Positions 13,714-56,711 of a stretch of DNA of 64,000 nucleotides are shown in pieces (position 1 is the first letter of the stretch; each line of letters begins with the position of its first letter). The stretch is from a virus: the IMG/VR virus record IMGVR_UViG_3300031857_000025; one strand, written 5' to 3'. The notes beneath the pieces are model-generated. The model did not search any database. It was not told the DNA's origin and saw only the letters and a list, made by a program, of their open reading frames with translations. Made by a program: the position numbers and the translations under genes.

Positions 13714-13729
13714 AAAAAAGGTAATCAGT

Positions 13730-14086: not shown

Positions 14087-14089
14087 TAA

Positions 14090-15361: not shown

Positions 15362-15366
15362 TAATT

Positions 15367-16632: not shown

Positions 16633-16684
16633 AAACTTGTAACATTATAATATCTACATATTTATTAAAAAGTGAGATAAATAT

Positions 16685-17143: not shown

Positions 17144-17146
17144 TAA

Positions 17147-19548: not shown

Positions 19549-19563
19549 AATTAAAGTGTAGAC

Positions 19564-20703
19564 ATGTATCATTTATATTTTGCCGAAAGAGATACTACAT
19601 TATATGAACGTTATCCTAACCGTAACACGGGTATAGATAGTATTATAGAACTAACAAAAATAACATCAGGTAGTAAGTTAGAAAAAGTAGTACAATCTAA
19701 TACATATAACAGTCGTATATTAATAGACTTTGGAGCACAGGTTACTGCAATACGTACTGCTATAGCATCTGGATTAATGCCTCCGATAGGGCCACTATCT
19801 AATAATTCAGCATCTGTATATCTTAATTTAAGAGCAGCTAACGCAACAGATTTACCAACTGATTATACATTATATGCATATCCAGTTTCTGAATCATGGA
19901 CTAATGGAAATGGTAACTATTCTGATGTACCTGAGGTACGTAATGGAGCTTCTTGGTATTATCGTGATAATGAGGACCTTGCAACTAGTTGGCGTACCGG
20001 ATCGGCTCATAGTAGCGGTGATAGTAGTGTTACTGAATTACGCGGTGGCGGTACATGGATAACCGGGTCGACATATGAAGCTAGTCAATCATTTTCATAT
20101 GAACAACCTGATATACGCATGGATGTTACAGATATTGTTAAACGTTGGATTGCACAAGATATTCCTAATTATGGTTTTATAATTAAACGTAGTAAGACTG
20201 ATGAACGTTCTGGCGAAATATTAGGTAGTATTAAATTCTATGGCGTAGATACTAATACAATTTATGTACCGCGTTTAGAAGTAGCGTGGAATGATACGGT
20301 ATTTAATACTGGAAATAATAGTGTAATTGATACTAGTAATTATACTGTTTATATAACTAACATACATGACAGTTATCACGAATCTGAACGTGTTAGATTT
20401 GATGTTGGTATTCGTCCAATGTACCCAACTCGTGCATACGCAACTAGTTCACATTATTTTACTAGTAATGTACTACCATCTTCTAGTTATTACAGTATAA
20501 AAGATGCCGTAACTAATGAAACTATAATTCCATACGATGATAATGCTACAAAGATATCATGTGACGGTAATGGAAGTTTCTTTAATTTACGTTTAAATAC
20601 ATTTATGCCAGAACGTTATTATAAAATAGAACTAAAAATTCAACGCAGTAATAATGATATTCAAATTCATGATAATGGTTTTTATTTTAAGGTTGTTAGA
20701 TAA
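19564..20703 (+). CDS. virion structural protein
   Basis: DTTLYE...SRILIDF...DVTDIVKRW...NYGFIIK...PRLEVAW (DNRLRE-like pattern); baseplate context. Confidence 0.6.
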   Translation: MYHLYFAERDTTLYERYPNRNTGIDSIIELTKITSGSKLEKVVQSNTYNSRILIDFGAQVTAIRTAIASGLMPPIGPLSNNSASVYLNLRAANATDLPTDYTLYAYPVSESWTNGNGNYSDVPEVRNGASWYYRDNEDLATSWRTGSAHSSGDSSVTELRGGGTWITGSTYEASQSFSYEQPDIRMDVTDIVKRWIAQDIPNYGFIIKRSKTDERSGEILGSIKFYGVDTNTIYVPRLEVAWNDTVFNTGNNSVIDTSNYTVYITNIHDSYHESERVRFDVGIRPMYPTRAYATSSHYFTSNVLPSSSYYSIKDAVTNETIIPYDDNATKISCDGNGSFFNLRLNTFMPERYYKIELKIQRSNNDIQIHDNGFYFKVVR

Positions 20704-23333: not shown

Positions 23334-23340
23334 TTAACAT

Positions 23341-27900: not shown

Positions 27901-27940
27901 AATAAGATATTGATATATTTATTAAAAAGATAGGAATATT

Positions 27941-28615
27941 ATGGGATATTTGAATAATTCTACAATAACAGTTGATGCCATCCTTACCAAAAAAGGACGT
28001 GAACTTTTAGCACGTGGAAGAGATGAGTTTAAAATTACTCAATTTGCTTTGAGTGATGATGAAATTGATTATGATTTATATAATACAGAACATCCATTAG
28101 GTACTGCATATTACGGAGCGGCTATTGAAAATATGCCAATCATTGAAGCTATTCCAGATGAAACTCAAATGATGAAATATAAATTAGTTACATTACCCAA
28201 AGGTACGGCTAGAATACCAATTGTAAGTATTGGACAGACAGTGTTAAATTTACAAGGACGTGAGCGTGCACTTATCGCCCCTAATACAATAAACTTTACT
28301 AATGGTAATGCACAATATGGATATACAGCAATTTTAGCTGATTCAGATATAGCCGAAATTAGAGTAACTAGAGCAGCATCAAATCAAGCTGGAGCTCCGA
28401 CAGTAGCGCAATTTATTGGTGATTCGGAAGCCGCGCAAAGTGTAACAGTCTCTGGAATGGAATTTGAAATTGTTGCTAAGGAACAATTATTAACAAGTAA
28501 GACAACTACTGTATTATTTATTGGTAATGAAACTGGTGGTAGAGCTTTGTTGACAATTAATGTAGCAAGATTAGAAGTTGCAGTAACGGCAGGTGCTCCT
28601 ACTGAACAAAGATAA
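27941..28615 (+). CDS. baseplate/tail-collar structural protein
   Basis: ILTKKGRELLARG..FKITQFALSD; ATATTTAT 27915-27922 upstream. Confidence 0.65.
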   Translation: MGYLNNSTITVDAILTKKGRELLARGRDEFKITQFALSDDEIDYDLYNTEHPLGTAYYGAAIENMPIIEAIPDETQMMKYKLVTLPKGTARIPIVSIGQTVLNLQGRERALIAPNTINFTNGNAQYGYTAILADSDIAEIRVTRAASNQAGAPTVAQFIGDSEAAQSVTVSGMEFEIVAKEQLLTSKTTTVLFIGNETGGRALLTINVARLEVAVTAGAPTEQR

Positions 28616-28630
28616 TAAGGAAAATAATAT

Positions 28631-29875
28631 ATGGCAACATTAGGTCGTAACACAGGAAACATTAGCAGATTTGCAAATACAAACACTAATGCAGTTACTA
28701 CACAAATTGAATCATTAGCTCGACAATTGGCAGATCGTACGATACGCGAACGTGAATTTGCATTGACACGGCAGCGTAATGGTCGTATATATACGACATT
28801 TAATAGTGTAGATGATATACTAGCAAATAACATTGAAACTGTTACTCGTGGATTGTTTACAGGTACTGCTGGTAGTACTGGTAGTTTATTAACATTTAGA
28901 ACATCATCAACAGCTACAGCAATACAAAATACATATTTCCGTGAAATATTTAGTGATGCAGATAATACATATCCACAGTTTTCCGTAGCATATGGTCATT
29001 TTGAAGGGTCAGGTAGTGAAGATTTAACTGGTGGGTTACATAATGATACTCCTAGCCGTGCAATTTACAAACAATATGCACAGTTATTATTACCACCAAC
29101 GGATACACGATTTACTATTAATGGTACTAATACTAATAGTATTTACGTACTTAATTTTAATAGAGCACGTTTCCGTGAAAAATTAGATCCAGGAAATTTA
29201 GAAATTAATTTAGCAGTATTATCTGGTTCTAAAGTGGCTAATAACGTACATACTGGTTCAAATGTACGTCCTATACCAACTAGTCAAACTGGTAATGGCG
29301 TTATTCGATTAATTGATGATTCATCATTATCAAGCGCAACTATAGGCGAAGCTGGGCAAGTATATAATATAGTATCAGGTACCATTGACGAAGGCACTCT
29401 AATACATAATCCATCAAGTCCTGTATATTATGGATTGATATATCCTCAGTTTGGTGTAGTAATATTAAATGCAGATACGTTAAATACTAATGTTGGATTT
29501 GGCACTGTTACTGGGTCAGGTGTTCAGGGTGATAATGCCATGAAACTTGTCGTATCATTATCGGGATCAGCTGATAGAGCACCAGCCGGTGATGATTTTG
29601 GTTTACAAGCTCGTTCAAGTGAACAAGTAAAATCAACATATTATTTTGTACGTGTTAAAAATGGTGAATATAATTATAGTAACAATCCTACATTTACTAG
29701 TGGTTCATTAGGTCAATTAAGATATAGTACATTTATTAATGATCCGCAGACATATATTACAACTGTAGGTTTATATAATGACCGTAGAGAATTATTAGCT
29801 GTTGCAAAATTAAGTCGTCCATTACTTAAATCATTTACTCGTGAAGCATTGATTAAAGTAAAATTAGATTTTTAA
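28631..29875 (+). CDS. baseplate/tail structural protein
   Basis: C-terminal YITTVGLYNDRRELLAVAKLSRP. Confidence 0.65.
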   Translation: MATLGRNTGNISRFANTNTNAVTTQIESLARQLADRTIREREFALTRQRNGRIYTTFNSVDDILANNIETVTRGLFTGTAGSTGSLLTFRTSSTATAIQNTYFREIFSDADNTYPQFSVAYGHFEGSGSEDLTGGLHNDTPSRAIYKQYAQLLLPPTDTRFTINGTNTNSIYVLNFNRARFREKLDPGNLEINLAVLSGSKVANNVHTGSNVRPIPTSQTGNGVIRLIDDSSLSSATIGEAGQVYNIVSGTIDEGTLIHNPSSPVYYGLIYPQFGVVILNADTLNTNVGFGTVTGSGVQGDNAMKLVVSLSGSADRAPAGDDFGLQARSSEQVKSTYYFVRVKNGEYNYSNNPTFTSGSLGQLRYSTFINDPQTYITTVGLYNDRRELLAVAKLSRPLLKSFTREALIKVKLDF

Positions 29876-29886
29876 AATAAAATGAT

Positions 29887-31647
29887 ATGCCAGCAGTACC
29901 ATACGTATTTAGACCTGTAAAGTCTGGTGATGTACAATTAAGGCCGTTCAAAGCTTATAAAAGTTATACATTACAAAGTAATACTGACTATTCAAGTTCT
30001 GGTTATCGTGTGCATGATGCAATATATAAGCGTCCTCCTATACATGTAGGAGTTGATAGTTATAATTATCCTATTAATGCAAGTGACGGTACTAACCAAC
30101 ATGTAGTTTGGAGTAATATCGATCATAGATATTATCACTATCCATACGATATTAGCAGATGTCATGAACTAACAAATAATCGTGTTACAGAAAAATACTT
30201 AAACATATCAGCTAGTATACTTACTATTCCTTATTTTGATATTGGCGAAAAAATTAAACCGGGTAGTGTTAATATAAATGGAATTGTTAATGGTATTAAC
30301 ATTTTACTACAAGATGATGGCCATGGAAATTTAAGAGATATGGCTATATTAACAGCTTCATTTGCAAGTGCTAGTAGTCAGATATTATATGCTTCATTTA
30401 ATAATGCGTTCCGAGATACTGAAGTAGGTAGTAATTTATCACTGTTAAATGTAAAAGTAGATAATATAAATGTTAATGCTACTGTCAATAATGTACGATT
30501 AACAGAAGGATTAGAATTACATACTAATATTAATACATCATCACCAAACGATTTAGATTCTAGAAGTGGTTATTTGGGATTTATACCAACTAGTACAGCG
30601 GGGTATGTACAAATACCACATCATGATATTTTTAATCGGTTTAATAGAACAGACCATTGGACAATATCATTTTGGTACAGACAGGCATTAAATAAATATA
30701 ATAATAACGGTACTATTATATCTAAAGCATTTCAGCGTACCAATACTCAAATAATTAACGGAGTGCGTAGCTTTGTAACTCAAAGTATAACACCGCCCGT
30801 AGATGCATCTATAGTTGGTTCATACAATCAAATACAAACACCGTTTCATATCTTTACTGATACGGTAGGTTCTACTGATTGTATATGTTTTAAAGCTAGT
30901 AACGGTAGTAGTGAATTATTCATATCAGGCGCTATTAGTTATAGTACTACATTAAGTTGGGAACATTTTGCTTTTGTAAATGATGGCGAATTTGTACGTA
31001 TGTATATTAACGGTAATTTACATCCGCTTAGTGGTAGTTTACCTTTAACTGGTAGTACTGCAAATAACGCCGATGTTATGATGTTTTCCGCTAATACACA
31101 GTTTGATAATCCAATTGATAATGCATATTTAGGTGAGGTACGTATGTATGATTATGCATTATCAACATCGGAAATACAATCATTAAGTAATAGACATTAT
31201 ATATCTGCTTCATTATATCAAACAAATGTAGCTGGTAATATATTTTATCGTAATGGACAGATAGTATTATCATCACCTTTATCAAAATATCACTCTGGTT
31301 CAAGCTTTTTTAGTAATGAATGGACGGCCTCATGGAAAGGTACACATACTATATATGAAAATGAAGTAATGGTACGTATACCAGCTGATCAATTTAATTA
31401 TTCAGTTAATCCAACAGTGACGTACCGGCCGGCTATGGCTGTCGATTCGACTAGTGAAATTGAAAAACAAAATGGACCAGGTTCATTATATAAATCAATA
31501 TTTACAGGTAGTTTAGCTAAGCCATATATTACTACTATTGGTTTATATAATGATAAAGCACAATTATTAGCTGTCGGTAAATTAGCCCAACCAGTTCAAA
31601 AACGTGATGATGTTGACATGAATATTATAGTTCGTTGGGACTATTAA
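29887..31647 (+). CDS. tail structural protein with LamG/concanavalin-like domain
   Basis: WTISFWY, WEHFAFV..G..VRMYING, GEVRMYDYALS; same YITTIGLYND C-terminus as the previous gene. Confidence 0.7.
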   Translation: MPAVPYVFRPVKSGDVQLRPFKAYKSYTLQSNTDYSSSGYRVHDAIYKRPPIHVGVDSYNYPINASDGTNQHVVWSNIDHRYYHYPYDISRCHELTNNRVTEKYLNISASILTIPYFDIGEKIKPGSVNINGIVNGINILLQDDGHGNLRDMAILTASFASASSQILYASFNNAFRDTEVGSNLSLLNVKVDNINVNATVNNVRLTEGLELHTNINTSSPNDLDSRSGYLGFIPTSTAGYVQIPHHDIFNRFNRTDHWTISFWYRQALNKYNNNGTIISKAFQRTNTQIINGVRSFVTQSITPPVDASIVGSYNQIQTPFHIFTDTVGSTDCICFKASNGSSELFISGAISYSTTLSWEHFAFVNDGEFVRMYINGNLHPLSGSLPLTGSTANNADVMMFSANTQFDNPIDNAYLGEVRMYDYALSTSEIQSLSNRHYISASLYQTNVAGNIFYRNGQIVLSSPLSKYHSGSSFFSNEWTASWKGTHTIYENEVMVRIPADQFNYSVNPTVTYRPAMAVDSTSEIEKQNGPGSLYKSIFTGSLAKPYITTIGLYNDKAQLLAVGKLAQPVQKRDDVDMNIIVRWDY

Positions 31648-32220: not shown

Positions 32221-33147
32221 ATGAGTAAGTTATCGGTTATTTCTCTTCTCGAATCTGTTCTTGGTAAAAGTCGCCAATCAACTGACGATAATTTAGCTTT
32301 TCATTGTCCATTCTGTCATCATCATAAACCTAAGTTAGAAGTTAATATCGTAACTCAACATTGGCATTGTTGGGTATGTAATGCGGCTGGTAGAAAGATA
32401 CCTATCTTATTTCGTAAACTTAATACACCTCGAGAAAAAGTAGCTCAATTAATTAAACTACTAGATGGTGTAGAATATAAGCCTACTAAGACTACAACGG
32501 ATACACCTGTAGTTGAACTTCCTAAAGAATATCGACCATTATGGGTTATGGATAAAGCTAATCCTGAGTATCGTAACGCCGTACGTTATTTACTTAACCG
32601 TGGTATTACTATTCATGATATACTAAAATACAGAATTGGATATTGTGAAACTGGTCAATATTCCGGTAAGATAATTATTCCTAGTTATGATGCTAATGGT
32701 AGTCTTAATTATTTTGTAGGTCGTGCCTATTATGAATCAGATGGCATGCGTCATAAGAATCCAAAAGTATCAAAAGATATAATTGGATTTGAACTGCATA
32801 TAAACTGGAATATGCCAATTATATTAGTAGAAGGCGCATTTGATGCGATTGCTATTAAACGTAATGTTATTCCATTATTTGGTAAAACTATTTCAAATAC
32901 ACTTAAGAAACGTATTGTAGAACGTAAAGTGAAAACTATATACATATGTCTAGATCTAGATGCTAGAAAACAAGCACTTGAAACAGCTGAGTATTTTATT
33001 AATAACGGTATAGATGTATACTTTGTAGAACTAACTGGTAAAGATCCTAGTGAATTAGGATTTGAACAGACTAAACATATACTAGATGCTACAACTAGAT
33101 TAACAGAACAGAATTTAATGCAAGAAAAGATATTATGCGCACTATAG
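32221..33147 (+). CDS. DNA primase (Zn finger + TOPRIM)
   Basis: CPFC...WHCWVC, ILVEGAFDA, ICLDLDA, KDPSE. Confidence 0.88.
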   Translation: MSKLSVISLLESVLGKSRQSTDDNLAFHCPFCHHHKPKLEVNIVTQHWHCWVCNAAGRKIPILFRKLNTPREKVAQLIKLLDGVEYKPTKTTTDTPVVELPKEYRPLWVMDKANPEYRNAVRYLLNRGITIHDILKYRIGYCETGQYSGKIIIPSYDANGSLNYFVGRAYYESDGMRHKNPKVSKDIIGFELHINWNMPIILVEGAFDAIAIKRNVIPLFGKTISNTLKKRIVERKVKTIYICLDLDARKQALETAEYFINNGIDVYFVELTGKDPSELGFEQTKHILDATTRLTEQNLMQEKILCAL

Positions 33148-44083: not shown

Positions 44084-45667
44084 ATGGCACAGAAAAGTTT
44101 ACGTGAAATAATTTCAGAAGAATACAAACGTTGTGCAGTGGATCCTATCCATTTCATGCGCAAGTATTGTATTATTCAACATCCCACAAAAGGTAAAATG
44201 TATTTTAACCTTTATCCATTTCAGGAAGAGGTATTAACATCCTTACAACATAACCGATATAGTGTAATACTTAAATCGCGTCAGTTAGGTATATCAACAG
44301 TAACTGCTGGTTATGTGTTATGGGCAATGCTGTTTAAATCAGATTATAATGTATTAGTTATTGCAACTACTCAAGACGTTGCTAAAAACTTGGTTACAAA
44401 GATACGTGTAATGCACGAAAATCTTCCTAGTTGGTTAAAGGGTACGTCTATTGAAGATAACAAATTATCCTTACGCTTTAAGAACGGTTCTCAAGTTAAA
44501 GCTGTATCAAGTACTGGTACTGCCGGTCGTTCTGAAGCATTATCTCTTTTAGTAATTGATGAGGCAGCGTTTATTAGAAACATTGATGAAATATGGACAT
44601 CGGCTCAACAAACACTTGCGACAGGTGGTGGATGTATTTCTTTATCTACTCCTAATGGTACTGGTAATTGGTTTCATAAAATTTGGTCAGATGCGGAAGC
44701 GGGTGGTCAATTTCATCCGATAAAACTGCATTGGACAGTACATCCAGATCGTGATGACAAATGGAGAGTTCAACAGACAGAGTTGTTAGGAGAAAAACAA
44801 GCAGCCCAAGAATGTGATTGTGACTTTATATCATCAGGACATACTGTTATTGACGGTCCTATTCTGCAATGGTATGAACAAACATATATTAAAGAGCCAA
44901 TAGAAAAACGTGGATTTGATAGTAATTATTGGGTATGGGAATATCCAGAATACGGTACTAACAAAAGCTATGCAGTTGTAGCTGACGTTGCCCGAGGCGA
45001 TGGAGCAGACTATTCAGCTTTCCATGTTATAGAAATCAATTCAATGACTCAAGTAGCTGAATATCGTGGTAAGATAGGAACAACTGATTACGGTAATATG
45101 CTTGTATCTGTAGCAACTGAATATGATAATGCCTTACTAGTAATTGAAAATGCTAATATAGGATGGGCAGTACTACAAGTAGCGATAGATCGTAATTACA
45201 ATAACTTATATTATTCATATCGTTCAGATGCATATGTAGATGAAAATGTACATTTAGCAAAAGGATATGATTTGAAAAGTAAGTCAGATAAAGTTCCTGG
45301 CTTTTCAATGAATTCAAAAACTCGTCCACTTGTAATATCTAAACTAGAAACATATTTTCGTGAAAAAAGTCCAGTAGTACGTAGTAAACGATTAATAGAT
45401 GAACTGTTAGTATTTATATGGACTGGTCAACGTGCAGAAGCACAAAGAGGTTATAATGATGACTTGGTAATGTCCTTTGGTACCGCTTTATGGGTACGTG
45501 ATACAGCACTTCGTCTACATCAACAAGGTATAGATTTATCTAGAAAAACGTTAGGTCATTTTGGCAAGACTACCCCGGGTGTATATAGTAGTAATAATAC
45601 TGCTGCTAATAATAGTTGGTCATGGGGTACAGCTAATGGAAACGAGAGCCTTACCTGGCTTATCTAA
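44084..45667 (+). CDS. terL: terminase large subunit (gp17-like)
   Basis: LYPFQ, KSRQLGIS, LLVIDEAAF, STPNG, ADVARGDGADYS, YNDDLVMS. Confidence 0.95.
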   Translation: MAQKSLREIISEEYKRCAVDPIHFMRKYCIIQHPTKGKMYFNLYPFQEEVLTSLQHNRYSVILKSRQLGISTVTAGYVLWAMLFKSDYNVLVIATTQDVAKNLVTKIRVMHENLPSWLKGTSIEDNKLSLRFKNGSQVKAVSSTGTAGRSEALSLLVIDEAAFIRNIDEIWTSAQQTLATGGGCISLSTPNGTGNWFHKIWSDAEAGGQFHPIKLHWTVHPDRDDKWRVQQTELLGEKQAAQECDCDFISSGHTVIDGPILQWYEQTYIKEPIEKRGFDSNYWVWEYPEYGTNKSYAVVADVARGDGADYSAFHVIEINSMTQVAEYRGKIGTTDYGNMLVSVATEYDNALLVIENANIGWAVLQVAIDRNYNNLYYSYRSDAYVDENVHLAKGYDLKSKSDKVPGFSMNSKTRPLVISKLETYFREKSPVVRSKRLIDELLVFIWTGQRAEAQRGYNDDLVMSFGTALWVRDTALRLHQQGIDLSRKTLGHFGKTTPGVYSSNNTAANNSWSWGTANGNESLTWLI

Positions 45668-45689
45668 TATTTATTAATAAATAGAACTT

Positions 45690-47591
45690 ATGGCAGATAC
45701 TTCACTACAAGCTAGACTTAAACGACTGTTTTCAACTAATGTCGTTGTGCGTAGAATAGCAAAAAACCGTTTAAAGGCTATTGATACTAATAAGTTACAA
45801 TCAAACGGTTCATTGTCAACAACTGCATATATAGATCGTTTTGCCGGTCTACATAGAGGTCAAGGAGGCCAGTCAGTTTACAATGGTACATATAACTTTC
45901 ATCAATCTAAAGTAGAATTATTTTCAGATTATGAGGCTATGGATTTAGATCCTATTATCGCATCGGCATTAGACATATATGCAGATGAAAGTACAGTTAA
46001 AGATTCGGAAGGTGATACTTTAACAATATCATCGCCTAATAATGAAATACGTAAAGTACTTCATAATTTGTTTTATGATATACTTAATATAGATTATAAT
46101 TTATGGCCATGGATACGTAATGCTTGTAAGTATGGAGACTTTTATCTTTATCTAGATATTGAAGATGAGTTAGGAGTTATTAATGTAATTCCAATGTCTG
46201 CATATGAAATGGTACGTGAAGAAGGATATGATCAAGAAAATCCATATGCATATCGATTTGTAATGCAAGGTGCTCATACTACTACTAGACATTTTGCGGG
46301 TACCGGAGGACAAAATCCACGTAATGAATTTGAAAATTACCAAATAGCTCATTTCCGTTTATTATCAGATACTAATTTCTTACCATATGGTAAATCAATG
46401 ATTGAACCAGCACGTAAGATTTTTAAACAACTTACGTTGATGGAAGATGCTATGTTAATACATCGTATTATGAGAGCACCAGAACGTCGTATTTTTAAAA
46501 TTGATGTCGGTAATATACCACCTAACGAAGTTGATAGTTATATGCAACAGATTATCAACAAGATGAAAAAGACCCCGTATATTGATGAAACAACTGGGCA
46601 ATATAATTTAAAGTTTAATATACAAAACATGATGGAAGACTATTATCTTCCGGTACGTGGTGGAGATTCGGGAACAGCTATTGATACATTATCTGGATTA
46701 AGTTCGGATGGTCAGATTGAAGATATTGAATACTTACGTAATAAAATGCATGCCGCTCTTAAAATACCTAAAGCATTTTTAGGATATGATGAAGGTGTAG
46801 AAGGTAAAGCTACTTTAGCGGCTGAAGATGTACGTTTTGCTAGAACTATTGAACGTATACAAAAAATATTCGTATCAGAGTTAACTAAAATTGCTATTGT
46901 ACATTTATATGCACAAGGATTCCGTGATGAAGATTTGGTTAATTTTAGTTTATCACTAACTAACCCATCATTAATATATGAAAAGCAAAAAATTGAATCT
47001 CTTAATGAAAAGGTAAGTTTGGCCGGTAATCTTAAAGAGACTACCATGTTTTCAGAAAAATATATTTATGAAAATGTATTTGGATTAAGTGAAGAAGAAT
47101 GGCAAGCTGAACGTGAATTAGTTATTGAGGACTTAAAACAAGACTTCCGTAAGGAACAAATTAAGTCAGAAGGTAATGATCCAAAGAAAACTAATATGAG
47201 TTTTGGTACACCTCATGATATTGCTAGTATGCACGTTGCTAATAAAGGTGGATTGTTACCAGGTATGGAGCAAGAACATGTAGCCGGGCCAGGAAGACCT
47301 CAAGAGCCAGGTACTTGGGGTAGCCATGCAAGTCCGCATGGAAGAGATCCATTAGGTATTAAAGATTTAGGTAAAACATTTACTACTGATAAATCACCAT
47401 TACAACATAATTTCCGTGGTGGTAGTGCATTAAGTACGGAGCATATTGATACTAAAGCTATAATAAAATCAATGGCTAGTAAAGTAAAAACAAAACAAGT
47501 ATTAAAAGAGTCATTAGATATTGAGATTAAAAATGATGATGCTGGTACTATGTTAGATGAAAACAATTTACTAGATATAAATTTAACATAA
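45690..47591 (+). CDS. portal protein (gp20-like)
   Basis: LMEDAMLIHRIMRAPERRIFKIDVGN, EDYYLPVRGG, ALKIPK; ATATTTAT 45667-45674 upstream. Confidence 0.95.
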   Translation: MADTSLQARLKRLFSTNVVVRRIAKNRLKAIDTNKLQSNGSLSTTAYIDRFAGLHRGQGGQSVYNGTYNFHQSKVELFSDYEAMDLDPIIASALDIYADESTVKDSEGDTLTISSPNNEIRKVLHNLFYDILNIDYNLWPWIRNACKYGDFYLYLDIEDELGVINVIPMSAYEMVREEGYDQENPYAYRFVMQGAHTTTRHFAGTGGQNPRNEFENYQIAHFRLLSDTNFLPYGKSMIEPARKIFKQLTLMEDAMLIHRIMRAPERRIFKIDVGNIPPNEVDSYMQQIINKMKKTPYIDETTGQYNLKFNIQNMMEDYYLPVRGGDSGTAIDTLSGLSSDGQIEDIEYLRNKMHAALKIPKAFLGYDEGVEGKATLAAEDVRFARTIERIQKIFVSELTKIAIVHLYAQGFRDEDLVNFSLSLTNPSLIYEKQKIESLNEKVSLAGNLKETTMFSEKYIYENVFGLSEEEWQAERELVIEDLKQDFRKEQIKSEGNDPKKTNMSFGTPHDIASMHVANKGGLLPGMEQEHVAGPGRPQEPGTWGSHASPHGRDPLGIKDLGKTFTTDKSPLQHNFRGGSALSTEHIDTKAIIKSMASKVKTKQVLKESLDIEIKNDDAGTMLDENNLLDINLT

Positions 47592-47636
47592 TAACTATAT
47601 TTATTAAAAAGATACGTACAAACAGGATGTATAAAC

Positions 47637-48485
47637 ATGAGTAAGATTAAACATGCGAAAGTAAAGAATACTGGTTTAATTTTTGAGTTACTCGTACGCC
47701 AAGTAGCATCGGATACTATGAACAATAAAGATTCGGCAGCACTTCGTATAATTAAAAGAAATTTTAGAAAGAACTCAGAATTATCAAAAGAGTTAAAATT
47801 ATACCGTTCTTTACATGAAGAAACGTTTAACTCACAGCGTAAAGCAGAAATGTTTTTAGAAGCAGTACTTCGTACAAAACGCAGTATTAACGAAACAGCT
47901 TTAAAGCGTGAAAAATATAATTTAATAAAAGAAATACGTAACAATTATAACATTGAAGATTTTTTCAAATCACGTGTTAATAATTATAAACTACATGCTT
48001 CGATTTATAAATTATTTGAATTTGCAGAATCAGATGATCCAAAAGAATATGTAGAAAATCGATTTTCATTAACCGAATATATTTGTACAGTACGTAAGAC
48101 AGATACTGAAGCAGTACCGGTATTAACTAATGAAGATAAAGATGTTCGATTATTAGCATCTAAATTAATCATTGATCGTTTTAACGAAAAATATGCTACA
48201 TTAAACGAATCACAAAAACGTTTACTACGCGAATATATTAATAATGTAACTAACTCAGTGACACTTAAACAGTTTATTGTTAAAGAATCTGCTATGTTAC
48301 GTGATACTATTAATAAACTAAAAACTACAGTACCTAGCAAAGTTATACGTATCAAATTAAATGAAGTCGCTAATTTATTAACTACAATGAGCCGTCGTAA
48401 TAATATCGAAGATAAAGATATATTAACAATGCTTCGTTACTATGAATTAGTAGAAGAACTTAAAAGCATTAAAGGAGCAAAATGA
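47637..48485 (+). CDS. conserved head-module hypothetical protein
   Basis: KNTGLIFELL; FNEKYATLNESQK; located between portal and protease. Confidence 0.65.
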   Translation: MSKIKHAKVKNTGLIFELLVRQVASDTMNNKDSAALRIIKRNFRKNSELSKELKLYRSLHEETFNSQRKAEMFLEAVLRTKRSINETALKREKYNLIKEIRNNYNIEDFFKSRVNNYKLHASIYKLFEFAESDDPKEYVENRFSLTEYICTVRKTDTEAVPVLTNEDKDVRLLASKLIIDRFNEKYATLNESQKRLLREYINNVTNSVTLKQFIVKESAMLRDTINKLKTTVPSKVIRIKLNEVANLLTTMSRRNNIEDKDILTMLRYYELVEELKSIKGAK

Positions 48486-48784
48486 GTTTTTATCCTGGAT
48501 ATACAGCCACAGAACAAAATCAATTTACTAGACTAGGGCATCCTGGTAAGTATGTGTCATCGTATTTATATACTAGTGGTCAAGTAGACTTTACTGGTAG
48601 TAATTATGGATATGGTAGTATTATTGTTAAGACACCTGGTAATGCAACCGCTAGTTTATCGGACGGCGGAGAAATTATATTAAATGACTTAACAGCCGGT
48701 GTTATATATGACTTGTCAGTGAGACAGATTAAAGGTGGATCGGCTAGTGTTATTTACGTACTAAAGCGTCAAACAGGATTCTAA
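48482..48784 (+). CDS. small virion structural protein
   Basis: Beta-rich, 100 aa; AGGAG SD. Confidence 0.6.
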   Translation: MSFYPGYTATEQNQFTRLGHPGKYVSSYLYTSGQVDFTGSNYGYGSIIVKTPGNATASLSDGGEIILNDLTAGVIYDLSVRQIKGGSASVIYVLKRQTGF

Positions 48785-48785
48785 T

Positions 48786-49607
48786 ATGGGCCTACGTAAA
48801 GATATAGAAAAGAATTTTCGTCGGTTAATGGAAGCAGTAGACCGCGTTTCTGATAAAGAAGCCAACACGGATTTTGAAGACTTGGACGATAAAGATTTAG
48901 ACAATGATGGCGATACTGATAGTTCAGATCGATATCTAAAAAAGCGTTTAAGTAAAGTTGCTAAAATGGACGAAGAAGAAGAGTTAGATGAAATGTCTAC
49001 GACTGCAGGTGTACCTGGCTATGATTCGCCAATGGCATTTGGTAAAGCTGATGATGATACTATTGAAGCTGATGGTTGGAAAAAAACTCCTAAGACAAAT
49101 AAATTCTTTAAACGTATGGAAAGTAAAACATCTGATTATAAAAAAATGATGTCCGAAATGTACGGTGTTAACCCTAGTATTACAGAATCTAGTAATCCAG
49201 AAATGGATAAGTTAGTTACGGCATTTGTTGATAAGATAGCGGATAGAAATGGGTATCCAACATCAGAAGCTATCATATCAATATTTGAAGCACTTAAGCG
49301 AAAAGGATTTTTACATAAAAGCGTTGAATACAAATCACCTTCAGGCTATAGTATTGATGAAGCAGTATCATATCGTGAATACAAAAAAGATGAATCTGCT
49401 ACACCATCACAAAAGGTAAACAAAAGTATTATGGAAGTTAATCGTATGTTAGCTGAAATAGAACGAGTAGTAGCACATAACTTAAAATTAAAAAATGAAT
49501 CTGGTGTTAATTCTGGACAATTCTGGAAATCAACAGGGGCTCGTTTTTCAAAAATTAACGAACGTATAGTTCGTATTTCAAATAGATTAAAGGAATTATC
49601 AAAATGA
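48786..49607 (+). CDS. putative internal head/core protein with DxDxDG loop
   Basis: RRLME leader; DKDLDNDGDTDSSD; multiple I/LxE sites. Confidence 0.6.
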   Translation: MGLRKDIEKNFRRLMEAVDRVSDKEANTDFEDLDDKDLDNDGDTDSSDRYLKKRLSKVAKMDEEEELDEMSTTAGVPGYDSPMAFGKADDDTIEADGWKKTPKTNKFFKRMESKTSDYKKMMSEMYGVNPSITESSNPEMDKLVTAFVDKIADRNGYPTSEAIISIFEALKRKGFLHKSVEYKSPSGYSIDEAVSYREYKKDESATPSQKVNKSIMEVNRMLAEIERVVAHNLKLKNESGVNSGQFWKSTGARFSKINERIVRISNRLKELSK

Positions 49608-50419
49608 GTAATTTTTTAGATTGGCGTGATTATACAAGACAGCCACATATCAAACAATTAATTGAAACAAAAGGCGTTGAAGCTGCCCGTATACAATTCG
49701 TAAAAGAAAGTAATAAGGCATTATGGGATGATCCATTTATTATAAACGAATCATATGAATCACCTGGTACGTCGGTATCATCTAATAATTCAGCTGCGGT
49801 CGGTACTAATCCACAGTTGATTAGCGTAACAGCTGAAACTCAGAGCTTTGCATGGGCATCTGGATTGACTAATAATATTACCGGTTCTAATCATCCGACA
49901 AGTGCTAGTATACATGAATATTATTTTGATGTAACTGCTTATAACGGAGGAGTTGACTATACATATGACCACGTTGATACATTTAAAAAATTCAGATTTT
50001 TAATTGTATCTGGAGCAGCTGGATATACATATAGTAATACAACTGGTTTAGCAGGATTAATTACTGCATCTTATACAAGATCTGAAACTGGTAATATTAC
50101 TGGTAGTTTGTTAAACAGATTTAAAGATGCCGTTAATACCCAAGCCGCCGGAGCAGTAGTTGCTGGATTTACAAATACAATCGCACCAGCTGATTTATTT
50201 ACTGTAACATTAACAGCAGGAAGTGGCTCTTTGACAATTGAACATGACAATGAAGGTGGTGTACCGGATCCATATACAAACTTTATATCAGCTACAGCAT
50301 CAATCACAGTAACTACAAACGGTACAGATAAGATATATGATGAGACAGGTACGTATTATGATACAATTTTAGTAGATGGTGCTGTGTATCCATATACATC
50401 ATTAACTCGTAAAGGATAA
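49604..50419 (+). CDS. virion structural protein
   Basis: Thr/Ser/Gly-rich; head module. Confidence 0.6.
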   Translation: MSNFLDWRDYTRQPHIKQLIETKGVEAARIQFVKESNKALWDDPFIINESYESPGTSVSSNNSAAVGTNPQLISVTAETQSFAWASGLTNNITGSNHPTSASIHEYYFDVTAYNGGVDYTYDHVDTFKKFRFLIVSGAAGYTYSNTTGLAGLITASYTRSETGNITGSLLNRFKDAVNTQAAGAVVAGFTNTIAPADLFTVTLTAGSGSLTIEHDNEGGVPDPYTNFISATASITVTTNGTDKIYDETGTYYDTILVDGAVYPYTSLTRKG

Positions 50420-50420
50420 T

Positions 50421-51026
50421 ATGAGCAAACAACTTTTAGTTGATTATACAGTATTTGAAGTATCACCTCAACAAATAAACGAATCATTAACACAAAATAA
50501 CGGACGTTTAATTGTTAATGGAGTACTACAACGTGCTAATGCTCAGAATCAAAACGGCCGTGTATATCCAATGGAAATATTACAACGTGAAGCAAAAAAA
50601 TATAGTCAAACATTTATTGCGGAACGTAGAGCATTAGGAGAACTAGACCATCCAGATTCATCTGTTGTTAATTTGAATAACGTTAGTCATAATGTATTAG
50701 GTATGAATTGGAATGGTAACGATCTTGTCGGTACAGTAGAAATTCTCAATACACCGTCAGGTAATATACTTAAAGCATTATTTCAATCAGGAATTCGTTT
50801 AGGTATTTCATCACGCGGCATGGGGTCAGTTAAAGAAGTAATGCGTGAAGGAAATGCTACATTAGTAGTACAAGATGACTTTGATTTGATTGCATTTGAC
50901 TTTGTAAGTAATCCATCCACCCACGGAGCTTTCTTATCACCCGTCAATGAGTCAGTTAATAAAGTAATAAATGACAAATACGGTCATATAAATCGTATTA
51001 TACAAGATATCATAATGGAGTTTTAA
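50421..51026 (+). CDS. prohead core protease (gp21-like)
   Basis: NQNGRVYP, ALGELDHP, VSH, TPSG, LGISSRGMGS, DFVSNPSTHGA. Confidence 0.95.
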   Translation: MSKQLLVDYTVFEVSPQQINESLTQNNGRLIVNGVLQRANAQNQNGRVYPMEILQREAKKYSQTFIAERRALGELDHPDSSVVNLNNVSHNVLGMNWNGNDLVGTVEILNTPSGNILKALFQSGIRLGISSRGMGSVKEVMREGNATLVVQDDFDLIAFDFVSNPSTHGAFLSPVNESVNKVINDKYGHINRIIQDIIMEF

Positions 51027-51027
51027 T

Positions 51028-51288
51028 ATGCCATCATTATTAGAATTAGCACATACATCACAATACGGGCCTATCAATCCAGGACAAATGGGAACTGGAT
51101 ATACTACTGGTCCTAATGCAGAACCATTGGTTAACATGCAATTAGGTAACCCAGTTGCTAGTTCTGTATCATTTGATAGTTTGGAACAAGCATCTCATAA
51201 CAGTCTTTATGGTCCTTATAATACGCCAGGTCAGCCAGGCGCTGGATTTATTCCAGATCCATTTGCAAATATACCGCCTGAACTATAA
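51028..51288 (+). CDS. Gly/Pro-rich small protein with internal duplication
   Basis: SLLELAHTSQYGPINPGQMG and SLEQASHNSLYGPYNTPGQPG. Confidence 0.6.
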   Translation: MPSLLELAHTSQYGPINPGQMGTGYTTGPNAEPLVNMQLGNPVASSVSFDSLEQASHNSLYGPYNTPGQPGAGFIPDPFANIPPEL

Positions 51289-51296
51289 GGATTAGT

Positions 51297-51635
51297 ATGA
51301 ACTTAAAACATAAGTATAATAAACTGTTTACGGGTAAGCCAAAGTCTAATGATCAGTTACTTACGGAAGGTACTGTATTTTTAGGTATTGGAAACGCTAA
51401 ACGTAAAATTAATGAAGCAGAAAATGCCTCATATTATCAGGATCTTATGTCACAATTAGATGAAGCTGTAGCACAACTTAATCAGGTAATAGCTGATATA
51501 GATGCTCAGACAGAAGATGATATGGCATATGATTATGAAGTGAAAGCTGCACGTACAACAATTAACCGTTACGGTTCAGCTGCAATGAAAAATATAGCAG
51601 GTATTAGAAAAGTACTTAGAGGATTATCAAAATGA
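51297..51635 (+). CDS. hypothetical, putative internal head protein
   Basis: LLTE and INE sites; AAGGA SD. Confidence 0.6.
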   Translation: MNLKHKYNKLFTGKPKSNDQLLTEGTVFLGIGNAKRKINEAENASYYQDLMSQLDEAVAQLNQVIADIDAQTEDDMAYDYEVKAARTTINRYGSAAMKNIAGIRKVLRGLSK

Positions 51636-52042
51636 AAAAGTTTGAACAACAATTACTACGTAGTATCTTAAATGAAAAGTATTTAGGAGAAACTGAAAAA
51701 CCTAAAATGACTAAAGAGGAAAAGAAAGCTTTCTTGGAAGCAGTATCTCAATATCATAAGTTAGGAGAAATGGTTTACCGTAACAATCAGTTATCAGAAT
51801 TATCAGAGACATTAAGTAACATTGTTACTACTGCAGAAAATTTAACTATGCAAGAGTCTGAACATTGGTTTGATAATGTTACGGTTAGCCGTCATATGAA
51901 GCAAATACAAGAAGCCTTTAAGGTATTTGAAAAGACTGCCGGTGAGATGTCAGGCATGCAACAACGTTTAGAAGCTGCATACGAAGATATTGGTACAGTA
52001 CTAAACAAGTACTATAATGTAAATAATGCATTAGAAGGATAA
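51632..52042 (+). CDS. hypothetical, putative internal head protein
   Basis: LLRSILNE leader. Confidence 0.6.
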   Translation: MKKFEQQLLRSILNEKYLGETEKPKMTKEEKKAFLEAVSQYHKLGEMVYRNNQLSELSETLSNIVTTAENLTMQESEHWFDNVTVSRHMKQIQEAFKVFEKTAGEMSGMQQRLEAAYEDIGTVLNKYYNVNNALEG

Positions 52043-52043
52043 A

Positions 52044-52358
52044 ATGAATTTCATAACAAGTTACTGGAGAGAGTTATTGATATTGGTATTATTTGTATCA
52101 TTGTTAATAACTCTTTCTATGTTATATAATAAACCAACTGTTACGGTAACTATAGAAGATACCAAACAGATTGAACGCCTTAGGGAACAAGTTAATAAGT
52201 TAAACTCAGATCTATCAAATCTACAAACGGCTTATGATAATAAACAAGGTGAAACAGTTACACGAATAAAAAAAATAAAAGAACGCAATGCTGAAGAAAT
52301 TAACGCTCTTGATAAGTTGTCTACTGCTGGCCGCGATAGTGTCTGGACAACATTTTAG
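52044..52358 (+). CDS. N-anchored coiled-coil membrane protein (i-spanin-like)
   Basis: N-terminal TM followed by a coiled coil. Confidence 0.45.
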   Translation: MNFITSYWRELLILVLFVSLLITLSMLYNKPTVTVTIEDTKQIERLREQVNKLNSDLSNLQTAYDNKQGETVTRIKKIKERNAEEINALDKLSTAGRDSVWTTF

Positions 52359-52722
52359 TCCTAAACGTATAGTATATAATAACGACTCCTTAGTTTGTTT
52401 TTCATATAAACAAGAGTTGGATCTATTACGTAAAATTAAATTATGTAACGGCGTTGAAATTGAATTAACAGAGACTCGCTCGTTATGGAATGATTGTAAT
52501 AAGCAATTAACCATAGAACGTAAATATTACAAAGATTTAAACAAGTTATATACAGACCTAGAAACGGAAGCAGATAGTCTTCGTACTAAATATCAGAATG
52601 AAATTGTATTACATGCTAATACTAAAGCATTATTAGATACTGAAACCAATCGTAAGCGTAACTGGAGAATGGCAGCAATAGCCGAAGGCATAATAATAGT
52701 TGCTATTTTTCTTGTTAAATAA
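52288..52722 (+). CDS. secreted coiled-coil protein with C-terminal TM (spanin partner-like)
   Basis: Signal peptide ending VSG|Q, coiled coil, C-terminal hydrophobic helix; overlaps the previous gene. Confidence 0.45.
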   Translation: MLKKLTLLISCLLLAAIVSGQHFSPKRIVYNNDSLVCFSYKQELDLLRKIKLCNGVEIELTETRSLWNDCNKQLTIERKYYKDLNKLYTDLETEADSLRTKYQNEIVLHANTKALLDTETNRKRNWRMAAIAEGIIIVAIFLVK

Positions 52723-52757
52723 AGAAATAGTTATTATAATAATCAAAAATAAGTTAT

Positions 52758-53015
52758 ATGAATTACATAAGTAAAAAACAAAAACATTTTGCAAGCATCC
52801 AACCCGGAGTAGAAATTGGAGCTCGAGTAGTAAAAATTGGAGACCGTGGAGACATTTCATTTGCTTTACGTAAATGGAAAAAGGGTCTTAAAGATTCTGG
52901 TAAATTAGAAATCCTAAAGGAACGGCAAGAATATATTCCTGCTTCAGTTACTAAAAGGATTAATAGAGAAAGGGCTAGGTTTATAGCTCAAAGAGAATCA
53001 GAACGAAACGGTTAA
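52758..53015 (+). CDS. rpsU: phage-encoded ribosomal protein bS21
   Basis: DISFALRKWKK..KDSGKLEILKERQEYIPASVTKR..RERARF follows the bS21 pattern (AL++FK+...G...E.+.R..Y.KPS..++). Confidence 0.85.
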   Translation: MNYISKKQKHFASIQPGVEIGARVVKIGDRGDISFALRKWKKGLKDSGKLEILKERQEYIPASVTKRINRERARFIAQRESERNG

Positions 53016-53030
53016 CAAAACAAAGTTTAT

Positions 53031-53059
53031 AAAAAGATGTCAGTAACGGCATCTTTTTT
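53031..53059 (+). terminator. rho-independent terminator
   Basis: AAAAAGATGTC-AGTAAC-GGCATCTTTTTT. Confidence 0.8.
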
Positions 53060-53186
53060 ACTATTCGTTATATATATAATTGTTAATGATACCGTAACAG
53101 TCTATTATACGGTCACTCAAATTATATTATACAAATTATTAAGACTCTGAATAGTCTTATTTCCAAATTAAATACGAGGACAAATT

Positions 53187-54062
53187 ATGAACAAACTCTT
53201 AAAAGAGGCAATCGCAGATGCTAAAGCTGTTCGTGAGACTGCATTAGCAAACGCAAAAATTGCATTAGAAGAAACATTCAGACCAAGACTTCAAAACATG
53301 ATTTCTGCCCGTTTAGCTGAAGAAGAGGATATGGACGACGACATGGATGACATGGACGATGAAGAAATGCCAGCTCCTGCTCCTGCTGAAGAAGGATATG
53401 AAAATGATGAAGATGGTACTCCTAATCCAGGACCAGCTATTGAAGAAGAAGATGACATGGACGGTGTAGATGAAGAATTAGATCTAGAAGCTATCATCCG
53501 TGAACTTGAAGGCGATGAAGAAGAAATGGCTACCGAAGGTGAAGAAGAAGAAATGCCTATGGAAGGTGAAGAAGAAGAAATGGCTAATGAGGCTGAGGAC
53601 AAAGAAATGGACGAGGAAATTGATATCAATGAAATCATCCGTTCTTTAACTGAAGAAGAAGATTCTGAAGAAATGACTAACGAAGAAGAAGATTCTGAAG
53701 AAACGCCAAGTAAGGATCTAGAAGAAGCTTATCGTGTTATCAAATTCATGCAATCTAAACTTAATGAAGTAAATCTTCTTAATGCAAAATTATTATTTTC
53801 TAACAAGTTGTTTAGAAATTATGAGTTAAATGAATCTCAAAAGATGAAAGTAATTGAAAACTTTGACCGTGCAAATAGCTTGCGTGAAGTTAAATTAGTT
53901 TACAGTACTATCTGTGAGTCATTGACAACTAAAAAAGCAAAAAAACAAATCAAAGAAAGCTATGCTTCTAAACCAACCCGTAGTACTGCTCCAAAGAAAG
54001 AAATTCTTTCTGAAGGAAATGCTTTAGCTGCTCGTTGGAAGAAATTAGCTAACTTAAAGTAA
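53187..54062 (+). CDS. prohead core scaffolding protein (gp22-like)
   Basis: LLKEAIADAKAVRETA, very acidic middle, EVNLLNAKLL; directly upstream of the major capsid gene. Confidence 0.8.
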   Translation: MNKLLKEAIADAKAVRETALANAKIALEETFRPRLQNMISARLAEEEDMDDDMDDMDDEEMPAPAPAEEGYENDEDGTPNPGPAIEEEDDMDGVDEELDLEAIIRELEGDEEEMATEGEEEEMPMEGEEEEMANEAEDKEMDEEIDINEIIRSLTEEEDSEEMTNEEEDSEETPSKDLEEAYRVIKFMQSKLNEVNLLNAKLLFSNKLFRNYELNESQKMKVIENFDRANSLREVKLVYSTICESLTTKKAKKQIKESYASKPTRSTAPKKEILSEGNALAARWKKLANLK

Positions 54063-54083
54063 AAAATTAACAAAAGGAAAAAA

Positions 54084-55787
54084 ATGAATTTAAACTCATT
54101 ATTACCTCATGAATCAAATGCAACTCAACATGCTGCTGCGATCGCTTTGGAAAAGAAGTGGCAGAAGACCGGTTTGTTGGAAGGTTTGAACGGAGAGGTT
54201 GAAAGACGTGGTATGGCTGTTCTTTTAGAGAACCAAGCCAAGCAACTTGTAACTGAAGCAAACCAAACTGGTACTGGTGCAAATGCAGAAGATTGGAACG
54301 GTGTTGCCCTTCCATTGGTTCGTCGTATCTTTGCTGAAATTGCTGCGAAAGATTTCGTTAGTGTTCAGCCAATGAACTTGCCATCTGGTCTAGTGTTCTT
54401 CTTGGATTTCAAATATGGAAACAAGCAAGGAACTACTGGTACAGCTGGTGGTAACGATTTCTTATCCGGTGTTGGTCGTACTTCACAAAACGATTCTGTA
54501 TTCGGTGTAACTGATGCTACTAAAGGTACTACTGCCGGAACCGAAGGTCTTTATGGCGCTGGTCGTTTTGGATATACTATTAACGATTATAGCTCATCTC
54601 AATTAACTAATATAACGCCTGCTACTGCAACTACTGCTATTGCAACTACTAGATTTGCAACCGGCTCAGTTAGCCCAGCTGATGTTAACTTTGACACTGA
54701 ATTCTTGAATAGCACTGGTTCAACTGCTGCTTTAATTCAAACTTTAGATGTTAAGTTGTCTGACCTTGATGGTGCTGATACTAACGGTGTACGTGCATTT
54801 AACTTAGTTGATGCTGACGGTGATATTACAGCTGTATATCCTCAATTCACTAAATTGGTAACTCGTGCAGCTACTAATGATACTGTTCGTTTCGTTGTTA
54901 AATTAGCTTCCGCCGGTGTTACAGTAACACCAAACGTAGTATACCATAAGCAACCAGGTTCAAGCACTCGTGGTGATTTTGAAGATGTAAATGCAATCGG
55001 TGTAAACGGAGCAACGCCAGGTTCAACTTTGGATATTCCAGAAATTAACTTGGAATTGCGCTCTGAGGCTATTGTTGCTAAGACACGTAAGTTAAAGGCA
55101 ATCTGGAGTCCAGAATTTGCTCAAGACTTGAATGCTTATCATTCAATTGACGCTGAAGCAGAATTGACTTCAATGTTATCTGAGTATATCTCTCAAGAAA
55201 TTGATTTAGAGATCTTGGATATGTTGATTCAAAATGCCCAAACAACTGAGCGTTGGTCAGCTCAAATTGGTTTTGTATATGACGCAGCTACTACTTCATT
55301 CGTGAATGGAGCAATCTCTGGTCAAGCATACAACCAAGGAACTTGGTTCCAAACTTTAGGAACTAAGATTCAAAAGGTATCAAACCAAATTCACCGTTTA
55401 ACTTTACGTGGTGGAGCTAACTTCTTAGTATGTTCTCCAACTGTAGCAACTATCCTAGAGTCTATCCCAGGATATGCTGCTGATACTGACGGTGATAAGA
55501 TGCAGTTTGCAATGGGTGTTCAGAAAGTTGGTGCTATTAACAATAGATTCCAAGTTTATAAGAACCCATACATGACTGAAAATACCATCTTAATGGGATA
55601 CCGTGGAAGTCAATTCTTGGAAACAGGTGCTGTATATGCTCCATATATTCCATTGATCATGACTCCATTAGTGTACGATCCAACTAACTTCACTCCAAGA
55701 AAAGGTGTGATGACTCGTTACGCTAAGAAAATGGTACGTCCAGAATTCTATGGTAAAGTATTTGTACATGGTTTAGACCGCGTATAA
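54084..55787 (+). CDS. major capsid protein (gp23-like)
   Basis: LLENQ, LPLVRR, VSVQPMNLPSGLVF, AKTRKLKA.WSPEFAQDL, EIDLEI, YAPYIPL, PRKGVMTRY. Confidence 0.97.
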   Translation: MNLNSLLPHESNATQHAAAIALEKKWQKTGLLEGLNGEVERRGMAVLLENQAKQLVTEANQTGTGANAEDWNGVALPLVRRIFAEIAAKDFVSVQPMNLPSGLVFFLDFKYGNKQGTTGTAGGNDFLSGVGRTSQNDSVFGVTDATKGTTAGTEGLYGAGRFGYTINDYSSSQLTNITPATATTAIATTRFATGSVSPADVNFDTEFLNSTGSTAALIQTLDVKLSDLDGADTNGVRAFNLVDADGDITAVYPQFTKLVTRAATNDTVRFVVKLASAGVTVTPNVVYHKQPGSSTRGDFEDVNAIGVNGATPGSTLDIPEINLELRSEAIVAKTRKLKAIWSPEFAQDLNAYHSIDAEAELTSMLSEYISQEIDLEILDMLIQNAQTTERWSAQIGFVYDAATTSFVNGAISGQAYNQGTWFQTLGTKIQKVSNQIHRLTLRGGANFLVCSPTVATILESIPGYAADTDGDKMQFAMGVQKVGAINNRFQVYKNPYMTENTILMGYRGSQFLETGAVYAPYIPLIMTPLVYDPTNFTPRKGVMTRYAKKMVRPEFYGKVFVHGLDRV

Positions 55788-56548: not shown

Positions 56549-56711
56549 AAAAGTCAAAGTGTATCTACTATGAATTAGATATTAACTAGGACTTATAGAA
56601 TAGTATACTTGTTCGGTAATGATACTATAGTATAATAAAAATACCATAGTTATCATACTACATGTACTGCATGAAATACATATTTATATAAAAAATGCAT
56701 AGAAGAGCTAC

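Follow-up and report, generated by a model that had tools for sequence, protein, structure and literature searches.

A gene for ribosomal protein bS21 lies in the head module of the virus genome analyzed here, directly before the genes for the scaffold and the major capsid protein, and it raises the question of what a ribosomal protein does among the genes that build a virion. The analyzed DNA is a stretch of 64,000 nucleotides from IMG/VR record IMGVR_UViG_3300031857_000025, called the window below; positions count from its first letter, and features lie on the plus strand unless stated otherwise. A sequence-only reading had answered the question with a translational switch, in which the phage bS21 replaces the host protein, frees the anti-Shine-Dalgarno (anti-SD) tail of 16S rRNA and redirects the ribosomes of a Bacteroidota host to late mRNAs that bear Shine-Dalgarno (SD) sites. 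Part of that reading stands: bS21 and SD sites occur together, SD sites are linked to the late gene class, and the bS21 message has a leader without SD. Its argument from the loss of a host tyrosine does not stand. Judged from sequence comparisons, the pattern suggests that the phage retunes the ribosomes of its host.

The window has a GC content of 33.7%, with nearly all of its genes on the plus strand, and is syntenic with 77-137 kb of Flavobacterium phage vB_FspM_immuto (NC_055915; immuto below), a T4-like myovirus that is its closest cultured relative by DNA, with 58% capsid identity. The gene order common to the two runs from baseplate and tail fibers through primase, TerL, portal, prohead protease, scaffold and capsid to PhoH. 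The window capsid gene at 54084 is of the Gp23 type (Pfam E 6e-79), and PhoH follows at 55868. Compared with immuto, the window has several extra genes between protease and scaffold, and the last of them is bS21. Its head module is ordered TerL 44084, portal 45690, protease 50421, bS21 52758, scaffold 53187 and capsid 54084, which confirms the placement of bS21 given by the sequence-only reading and puts it within the capsid module in the sense of Chen et al. (2022; PMC9723584). The phage is a freshwater T4-like phage, probably with a host of the Flavobacteria type, whose ribosomes would ignore SD sites; a Bacteroidota host is suggested indirectly by the kinship with a Flavobacterium phage, by the early promoters, which resemble those of immuto, and by the bS21 itself, which among solved chains is closest to that of Flavobacterium johnsoniae. 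Searches for tRNA genes and Rfam families within the window found none.

The bS21 gene (52758-53015) encodes 85 residues, an extension of about 20 aa followed by the bS21 core. The match to Pfam Ribosomal_S21 (PF01165) is 22.2 bits (E 1.1e-4), below the 27-bit cut-off, and the TIGR00030 score is 14.2 against a cut-off of 28.95. There are 13 metagenomic homologues at 50-84% identity, and those tested (51-84% identity) reach 27.3-40.9 bits on the same Pfam family, above the cut-off. The closest Atlas clusters are viral RpsU, with PF01165 on 79-99% of members. bS21 chains account for 8 of the 12 rows listed in the comparison with solved structures, the best match being F. johnsoniae bS21 (7jil_z, E 0.007; window residues 24-77 against 3-56). 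An AlphaFold2 model (pLDDT 74) has a hairpin at 26-31, helices at 33-47, 49-55 and 62-84, and a low-confidence N terminus. Foldseek found no significant match for this model; its top rows, all weak (E 0.6-1.4), were mitoribosome small-subunit chains, probably bS21m, and the Bacillus subtilis chain 7qv1_b. We accept the protein as bS21. A tblastn search with it against 50,697 cultured-phage records returned nothing at E 0.01, and the annotated S21 of Microcystis phage Mel-JY01 surfaced solely through a capsid search. No relative turned up when bacterial genomes were scanned with the bS21 alignment. The N-terminal extension, already noted from the sequence, is real: the motif KKQKxFxSIIPG is conserved in 14 homologues, and K6, K9, P16 and G17 are invariant in 15 sequences. 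This conservation indicates that the first 20 or so residues, which have no counterpart in the F. johnsoniae protein, are translated and under selection.

The signals around the gene make it, as far as sequence can tell, a cassette of its own with a host-type promoter, a non-pairing leader and a terminator hairpin, an arrangement that is new here. A candidate sigma-70-like promoter, TTGTTA-17-TATAAT, lies directly 5' of it at 52712-52740 (10 of 12 matches in a consensus scan), followed by an A/T-rich leader without SD (52741-52757) that scores +0.1 kcal/mol for pairing with the anti-SD ACCUCCUUUCU. Behind the gene, at 53031-53058, a hairpin followed by a U-rich stretch resembles a terminator (RNA fold centroid -11.4 kcal/mol, z -3.2 against shuffles); the consensus scan misses it because the stem has too few G-C pairs. 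Two relatives (G001 and G002) have TTG-N20-TATATT at the same place before bS21, and this arrangement also stands 5' of the window primase, the ClpP-like gene and gene 5217. With these parts the bS21 gene appears to be wired like the early and replication genes though it sits inside the late head module. All bS21 homologues of the window clade have SD-less leaders, which end in AAGTTA(T/C)ATG. In other clades the bS21 gene itself has an SD (11 of 38 relatives), so that bS21 leaders without SD characterize the window clade and two further clades and are not a general rule. One such form, AAGGAAA..GGTT ATG, precedes bS21 at L054-L064, L072, L085, L100 and L103, where the protein has a basic tail and no aromatic residue.

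SD sites were scored before the first ATG of every non-nested ORF of at least 40 aa, an SD core being AGGA, GGAG or GAGG within -17 to -5. By this rule 27 of the 71 window genes have an SD core, 5-9 nt from the ATG, against a background of 4.7% at other ATGs and 5.1% at random positions; 2000 shuffles of the window leaders gave 3.3 cores on average and never more than 11. Nearly all motif starts fall at -13 to -8, and the most frequent form, AAAGGA, is complementary to the UCCUUU in the 16S tail. All 15 SD sites listed in the sequence-only reading contain one of the three cores in this range. The six leaders that it had called SD-less (3546, 5217, 8468, 11260, 32221 and 52758) pair at -3.1 kcal/mol or weaker, five of them between +0.1 and +2.9 kcal/mol, with the value for 8468 taken at the alternative start 8435. 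At ORF 5425 an AAGGAG directly abuts the first ATG; with no spacer between them, translation probably begins further downstream, and the first-ATG rule misplaces a few starts.

The scaffold gene (53187-54062) has GAGGA at 53176-53180 (-5.9 kcal/mol) and the major capsid gene (54084-55787) has AAGGA at 54074-54078 (-6.2 kcal/mol). In the late head operon, which extends over 47597-52722 behind a ATATTTAT motif, SD sites precede the genes at 47637, 48482, 48786, 49604, 50421, 51028, 51297, 51632 and 52044, and the last gene, 52288, has none. The baseplate and tail-fiber module (13706-31647), with late motifs at 13706, 16658 and 27915, has SD sites at 14090, 27941 and 28631 and lacks them at 17671, 19564, 20703 and 29887. 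The large terminase and portal genes (44084-47591) are late-module exceptions without SD. The exceptions that had been named beforehand, namely terminase 44084, portal 45690 and the baseplate genes 17671, 19564 and 29887, are thus real, and together with the SD sites in the small-gene region they count against a switch.

Two promoter classes can be told apart in the window. A late-type motif, ATATTTAT[AT], occurs 23 times on the plus strand and 4 times on the minus strand; 15 copies are followed after 12-40 nt, in most cases 21-27 nt, by the start of a gene, usually a structural one; examples are the copies at 13706, 27915, 31647, 36278, 39822, 41505, 45667, 47597, 55844 and 57080. Immuto has the motif in the same placement before late genes (30 copies against 4), and it is also present in Mel-JY01. 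Read in reverse, the motif resembles the T4 late box TATAAATA. The second class has the form TTG-N17-22-T[AT]TA[TA]T and precedes gene 5217, the ClpP-like protease gene 11260, the primase gene 32221 and the bS21 gene 52758; the primase gene (32221-33147), behind TTG-N-TATATT, has an SD-less leader at +2.9 kcal/mol. Promoters of the form TTGGAT-N-TTATCTTTA, likewise with SD-less leaders, lie at 3509-3545 before gene 3546 and at 8420-8467 before the endonuclease gene that starts at 8468. They have the shape of many immuto early promoters (TTG-N-TTATCTTTAGGTAT). The Bacteroidota promoter consensus is TTG / TAnnTTTG, and the early promoters of the window and of immuto come close to it. The motif scans therefore bear out the host-type promoters that had been proposed before 3546, 5217, 8468 and 11260. 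The strict -7 motif TAnnTTTG was not enriched before genes, nor in a Flavobacterium phage control, which makes that test uninformative; the relaxed form TTG-N16-21-TAnnTTT was enriched before genes.

The grouping of SD sites by promoter class, a comparison set beforehand, gave a clear asymmetry. In six bS21-bearing genomes pooled, an SD precedes 48 of 95 late-motif genes (51%) and 6 of 84 genes behind host-type promoters (7%; Fisher p 6e-11). In two bS21-less genomes neither class has any SD (0 of 28 and 0 of 46). When genes of the six bS21-bearing genomes were classed by homology to annotated immuto genes, SD sites were found on 59 of 112 structural genes against 3 of 40 genes of replication and nucleotide metabolism (p 2e-7). 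The window alone points the same way (8 of 14 against 1 of 5), with small counts. A switch would place SD sites in one temporal class and keep them off the bS21 message, and the pooled counts and the non-pairing leader of the window bS21 agree with this, while the bS21 genes with an SD in other clades do not. For the window itself, the earlier wording that SD sites are "restricted to late genes" is too strong, because 8 of the 29 genes in its first 13.7 kb also have an SD core, in a sequence where clear early genes are few; the link of SD sites to late genes holds in the pooled genomes.

Comparison of related phages with and without bS21 showed that bS21 and SD sites travel together. Immuto, whose complete genome yielded no S21, and G016, a second complete bS21-less genome, have SD sites on 5 of 225 and 7 of 251 genes (2-3%; 2% for immuto) although they share the late promoter, against 13-42% of genes in bS21-bearing genomes. 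Window leaders pair with the anti-SD at a median of -3.8 kcal/mol, those of immuto at -0.8 kcal/mol (p 4e-10), and the late leaders of immuto differ from those of bS21-bearing phages essentially by an AAGGA insert. IMG/VR capsid homologues gave 106 distinct loci with enough data. The SD fraction is at least 0.2 at 67 of the 68 loci with bS21 and below 0.2 at 32 of the 38 loci without, and the capsid gene itself has an SD at 32 of 38 bS21-bearing loci. At 44 of the 80 loci in a first set of relatives, bS21 has the same position as in the window, with the capsid gene 1-3 kb downstream. The single bS21-bearing exception among the 68 is L229, with SD sites on 2 of 20 genes and a GC content of 0.39. 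The capsid tree implies about seven changes in the bS21 state, with five independent pairs on well-supported branches; SD use is concordant with bS21 in about four of the five and opposite in none (sign test p ~0.125). The raw rank test (p 3.5e-9) overstates the association, which rests on only five to seven evolutionary changes. We put the chance of a functional coupling, with SD-dependent initiation on late mRNAs made possible or more efficient by the phage bS21, at about even, and that of any one route lower.

The main alternative to a functional coupling is that bS21 and SD sites are both inherited in clades that infect SD-reading hosts, such as Cyanobacteria or unusual Bacteroidota, while the clades lacking both infect SD-blind Flavobacteria, with no causal link between the two features. 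The small number of independent changes on the capsid tree, five to seven, leaves room for this. So does a clade (L077, L080, L087, L092, L097, L098 and L110; GC 0.38-0.53) with no S21 in its partial contigs that has a real SD peak, on 10-33% of genes and with a spacing to the ATG slightly longer, by a few bases, than that of the window clade. Phage bS21 is moreover described from phages of other phyla in the relevant part of Mizuno et al. (2019; PMC6375957). A further point in its favor is Mel-JY01 (PP395634; locus L207, PP395634.1 13062-38624, GC 0.35), a cultured phage inside a bS21-bearing, SD-using clade, with SD at 17 of 31 annotated starts and an annotated RpsU between protease and capsid, whose recorded host is Microcystis elabens. 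The S21 of Mel-JY01 belongs to the generic type with a basic tail, and its best solved matches lie outside the Bacteroidota. The recorded cyanobacterial host is at odds with the Bacteroidota hosts assumed for this capsid family, and the options are a different host phylum for the Mel-JY01 clade or a record that should be checked. Under either option shared inheritance keeps some weight as an explanation, though less in view of the early genes: an SD-reading host does not explain why, in bS21-bearing genomes, the genes behind host-type promoters and the replication genes have SD sites at background level (7%). Further points against it are the C-terminal Bacteroidia signature of the window bS21 and its best solved match in F. 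johnsoniae, the window promoters TTGGAT-N-TTATCTTTA of the same form as those of immuto, and the repeated nesting of bS21-less, SD-less clades among bS21-bearing ones. Taken with these points, shared inheritance by host is an unlikely explanation of the pattern.

How a phage bS21 could open the anti-SD, if the coupling is real, is constrained by the protein itself. The sequence-only reading had taken the motif ARFIA to mean that the host tyrosine that stacks on the anti-SD has been lost. The alignment to F. johnsoniae bS21, which it had put forward as a check, places Phe75 at the Tyr54 position, a conservative aromatic change, and does not bear out the loss; homologues at 51-56% identity have Tyr there, as do L004-L014 and other relatives. 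Bacteroidia bS21 is marked by Tyr54, which stacks on A1534, by Ile55 and, in comparison with other phyla, by a less basic C-terminal region (PMC7797042). The window protein has Ile76 after Phe75, in the place of Ile55, and its tail IAQRESERNG has a net charge of 0, as in the non-basic Bacteroidia signature. Among 56 aligned phage bS21 the Tyr54 position is Y in 22, F in 5 and R, K or V in 29 (I is also reported), and SD use is equally high in clades with and without the aromatic residue, so that aromatic loss is not what tracks SD use. Since the latch signature is kept, the window bS21 could hold the anti-SD like the host protein. The lever in the window clade would then have to be something else, and the sole universal difference from the host protein is the N-terminal extension. 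From the sequences, this conserved extension is the likeliest active part; it is attached to the portion of bS21 that PMC9723584 describes as covering the anti-SD. That bS21 is a plausible lever follows from F. johnsoniae, where the Y54A and deltaC variants raise strong-SD reporters 3-5 fold and leave SD-less ones unchanged (PMC9976891), showing that bS21 controls SD reading in such hosts.

The full sequence of events proposed for the window phage would be as follows. Unmodified host ribosomes would make the phage bS21 from its SD-less message; the protein would be taken up by 30S subunits at the platform site where bS21 is exchangeable, and would free the 16S 3' tail (UCCUUU, nucleotides 1537-1542) for pairing; from then on ribosomes would favor late mRNAs, whose short leaders have AAGGA at 5-9 nt from the ATG, over host and early messages that lack an SD. 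As a timed switch, in which early-made bS21 turns SD-blind Bacteroidota ribosomes into SD-reading ones and late virion mRNAs outcompete SD-less messages, this remains a tentative reading, with a chance a little under even.

A simpler role is that a host-like phage bS21 serves as a supply of a loosely bound essential protein after host shut-off, or blunts rpsU feedback, and that late SD sites are read in some other way, for instance by ribosomes that have lost bS21 or with the help of another phage factor. The host-like C-terminal helix (Phe/Tyr, Ile, non-basic tail) suits such a role, and in F. johnsoniae bS21 is essential and ribosomes without it read SD sites (PMC9976891). Supply leaves unexplained why bS21-less relatives have no SD on the same late leaders. 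A host-like bS21 would also close the anti-SD and work against the SD-led genes of the phage itself, and the conserved 20-aa extension has no host counterpart. We consider this role improbable. That AAGGA is a signal of late transcripts (initially transcribed sequence, processing site or stability element) and not a ribosome-binding site is very hard to credit, for although many copies lie just 3' of the late motif, and hence at the extreme 5' end of short leaders, the distance of AAGGA is fixed relative to the ATG (-13 to -8) and variable relative to the promoter (12 to 40 nt), it also precedes promoterless operon-internal genes (48482-52044), and it is complementary to the 16S tail at typical SD spacing.

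The idea of a phage bS21 that replaces the host protein and favors phage or late messages is already published (PMC6375957, PMC7162821, PMC9723584, PMC9976891, as far as the passages on bS21 in the first three go). The system closest to the window is that of the freshwater Bacteroidetes myoviruses of Chen et al. (2022, ISME Commun; PMC9723584), where the sections on bS21 place the gene among terminase, portal, protease and capsid and describe an aromatic residue at the Tyr54 position, as in the window, which shares the freshwater source. Those sections hold that the phage protein enters host ribosomes and favors late phage messages. They argue that the anti-SD stays blocked, and the passages on Shine-Dalgarno sequences are silent on SD sites of phage genes. 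Unlike the account in those sections, SD sites in the window are characteristic of the late class and are nearly absent from bS21-less relatives, and a separate host-type promoter precedes bS21. In the wider T4-like group, many bS21 from the capsid module also lack the aromatic residue found in the bS21 described there.

The autoregulation of rpsU in F. johnsoniae (Jha 2021, PMC7797042; McNutt 2023, PMC9976891) resembles the proposed coupling in that bS21 decides whether the 16S 3' tail pairs with an SD, and in that SD messages are selectively translated by a ribosome subpopulation that differs in bS21. There, the absence of bS21 opens the anti-SD and the SD message is rpsU; here, the proposal is that a phage bS21 translated from an SD-less message opens it for late genes by the dozen, and the window protein keeps latch-type residues. 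Like the window protein, the S21 of huge phages (Al-Shayeb 2020, PMC7162821) and the bS21 of pelagiphage HTVC008M (Mizuno 2019, PMC6375957) have basic and aromatic N-terminal extensions, according to the passages on these proteins; the hosts and phage lineages differ from those of the window. The same passages propose that phage S21 competes for the ribosome and favors phage mRNAs, and HTVC008M bS21 is reported there to be incorporated into Escherichia coli ribosomes. As to Shine-Dalgarno sequences, the available text of PMC6375957 never mentions them and that of PMC7162821 relates them to S1, with no link between S21 and SD sites or gene timing in either. No paper found by searching the accessible literature connects phage bS21 with SD sites on the late genes of phages.

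Phage-encoded bS21 is widespread in aquatic viruses, and the comparative pattern turns its presence into a concrete molecular prediction. If the prediction is true, a virus re-specializes the ribosomes of its host by swapping one exchangeable protein, and the SD blindness of Bacteroidota is reversible in vivo. The window sets two limits on the mechanism: loss of the latch tyrosine is unneeded, and bS21 is wired as an early gene within the late head module.

Several further features of these genomes deserve mention. The ClpP-like protease gene at 11260-11880, behind a host-type promoter (PHROG head maturation/ATP-dependent protease, E 1e-31), is a different gene from that of the T4-type prohead protease at 50421. 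Two bS21-bearing genomes (G038 and G040) have homologues of it, and none was found in immuto or G016. A Clp protease is likewise mentioned for bS21 phages in the pertinent passages of PMC9723584, and a protease aimed at host bS21 has been speculated upon (PMC9976891). Window genes exclusive to bS21-bearing genomes (the ClpP-like gene, the endonuclease, an SbcC-like gene and others) were dropped as evidence, since kinship confounds them. SD-like 4-mers occur at 13.5% of internal non-start ATGs in immuto (L019-L021) against 6-7% in bS21-bearing genomes; the bS21-bearing phages may avoid such internal sites, or this may be an effect of base composition. Two long intergenic regions with inverted repeats, 53016-53186 (171 nt, before the scaffold gene) and 56549-56711 (163 nt, after PhoH), had no Rfam match. 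Just upstream of bS21, the small ORFs 52044-52358 and 52288-52722 overlap; the first is weakly similar to an Rz-like spanin (PHROG E 3.4e-5), and the pair may be lysis genes within the head module.
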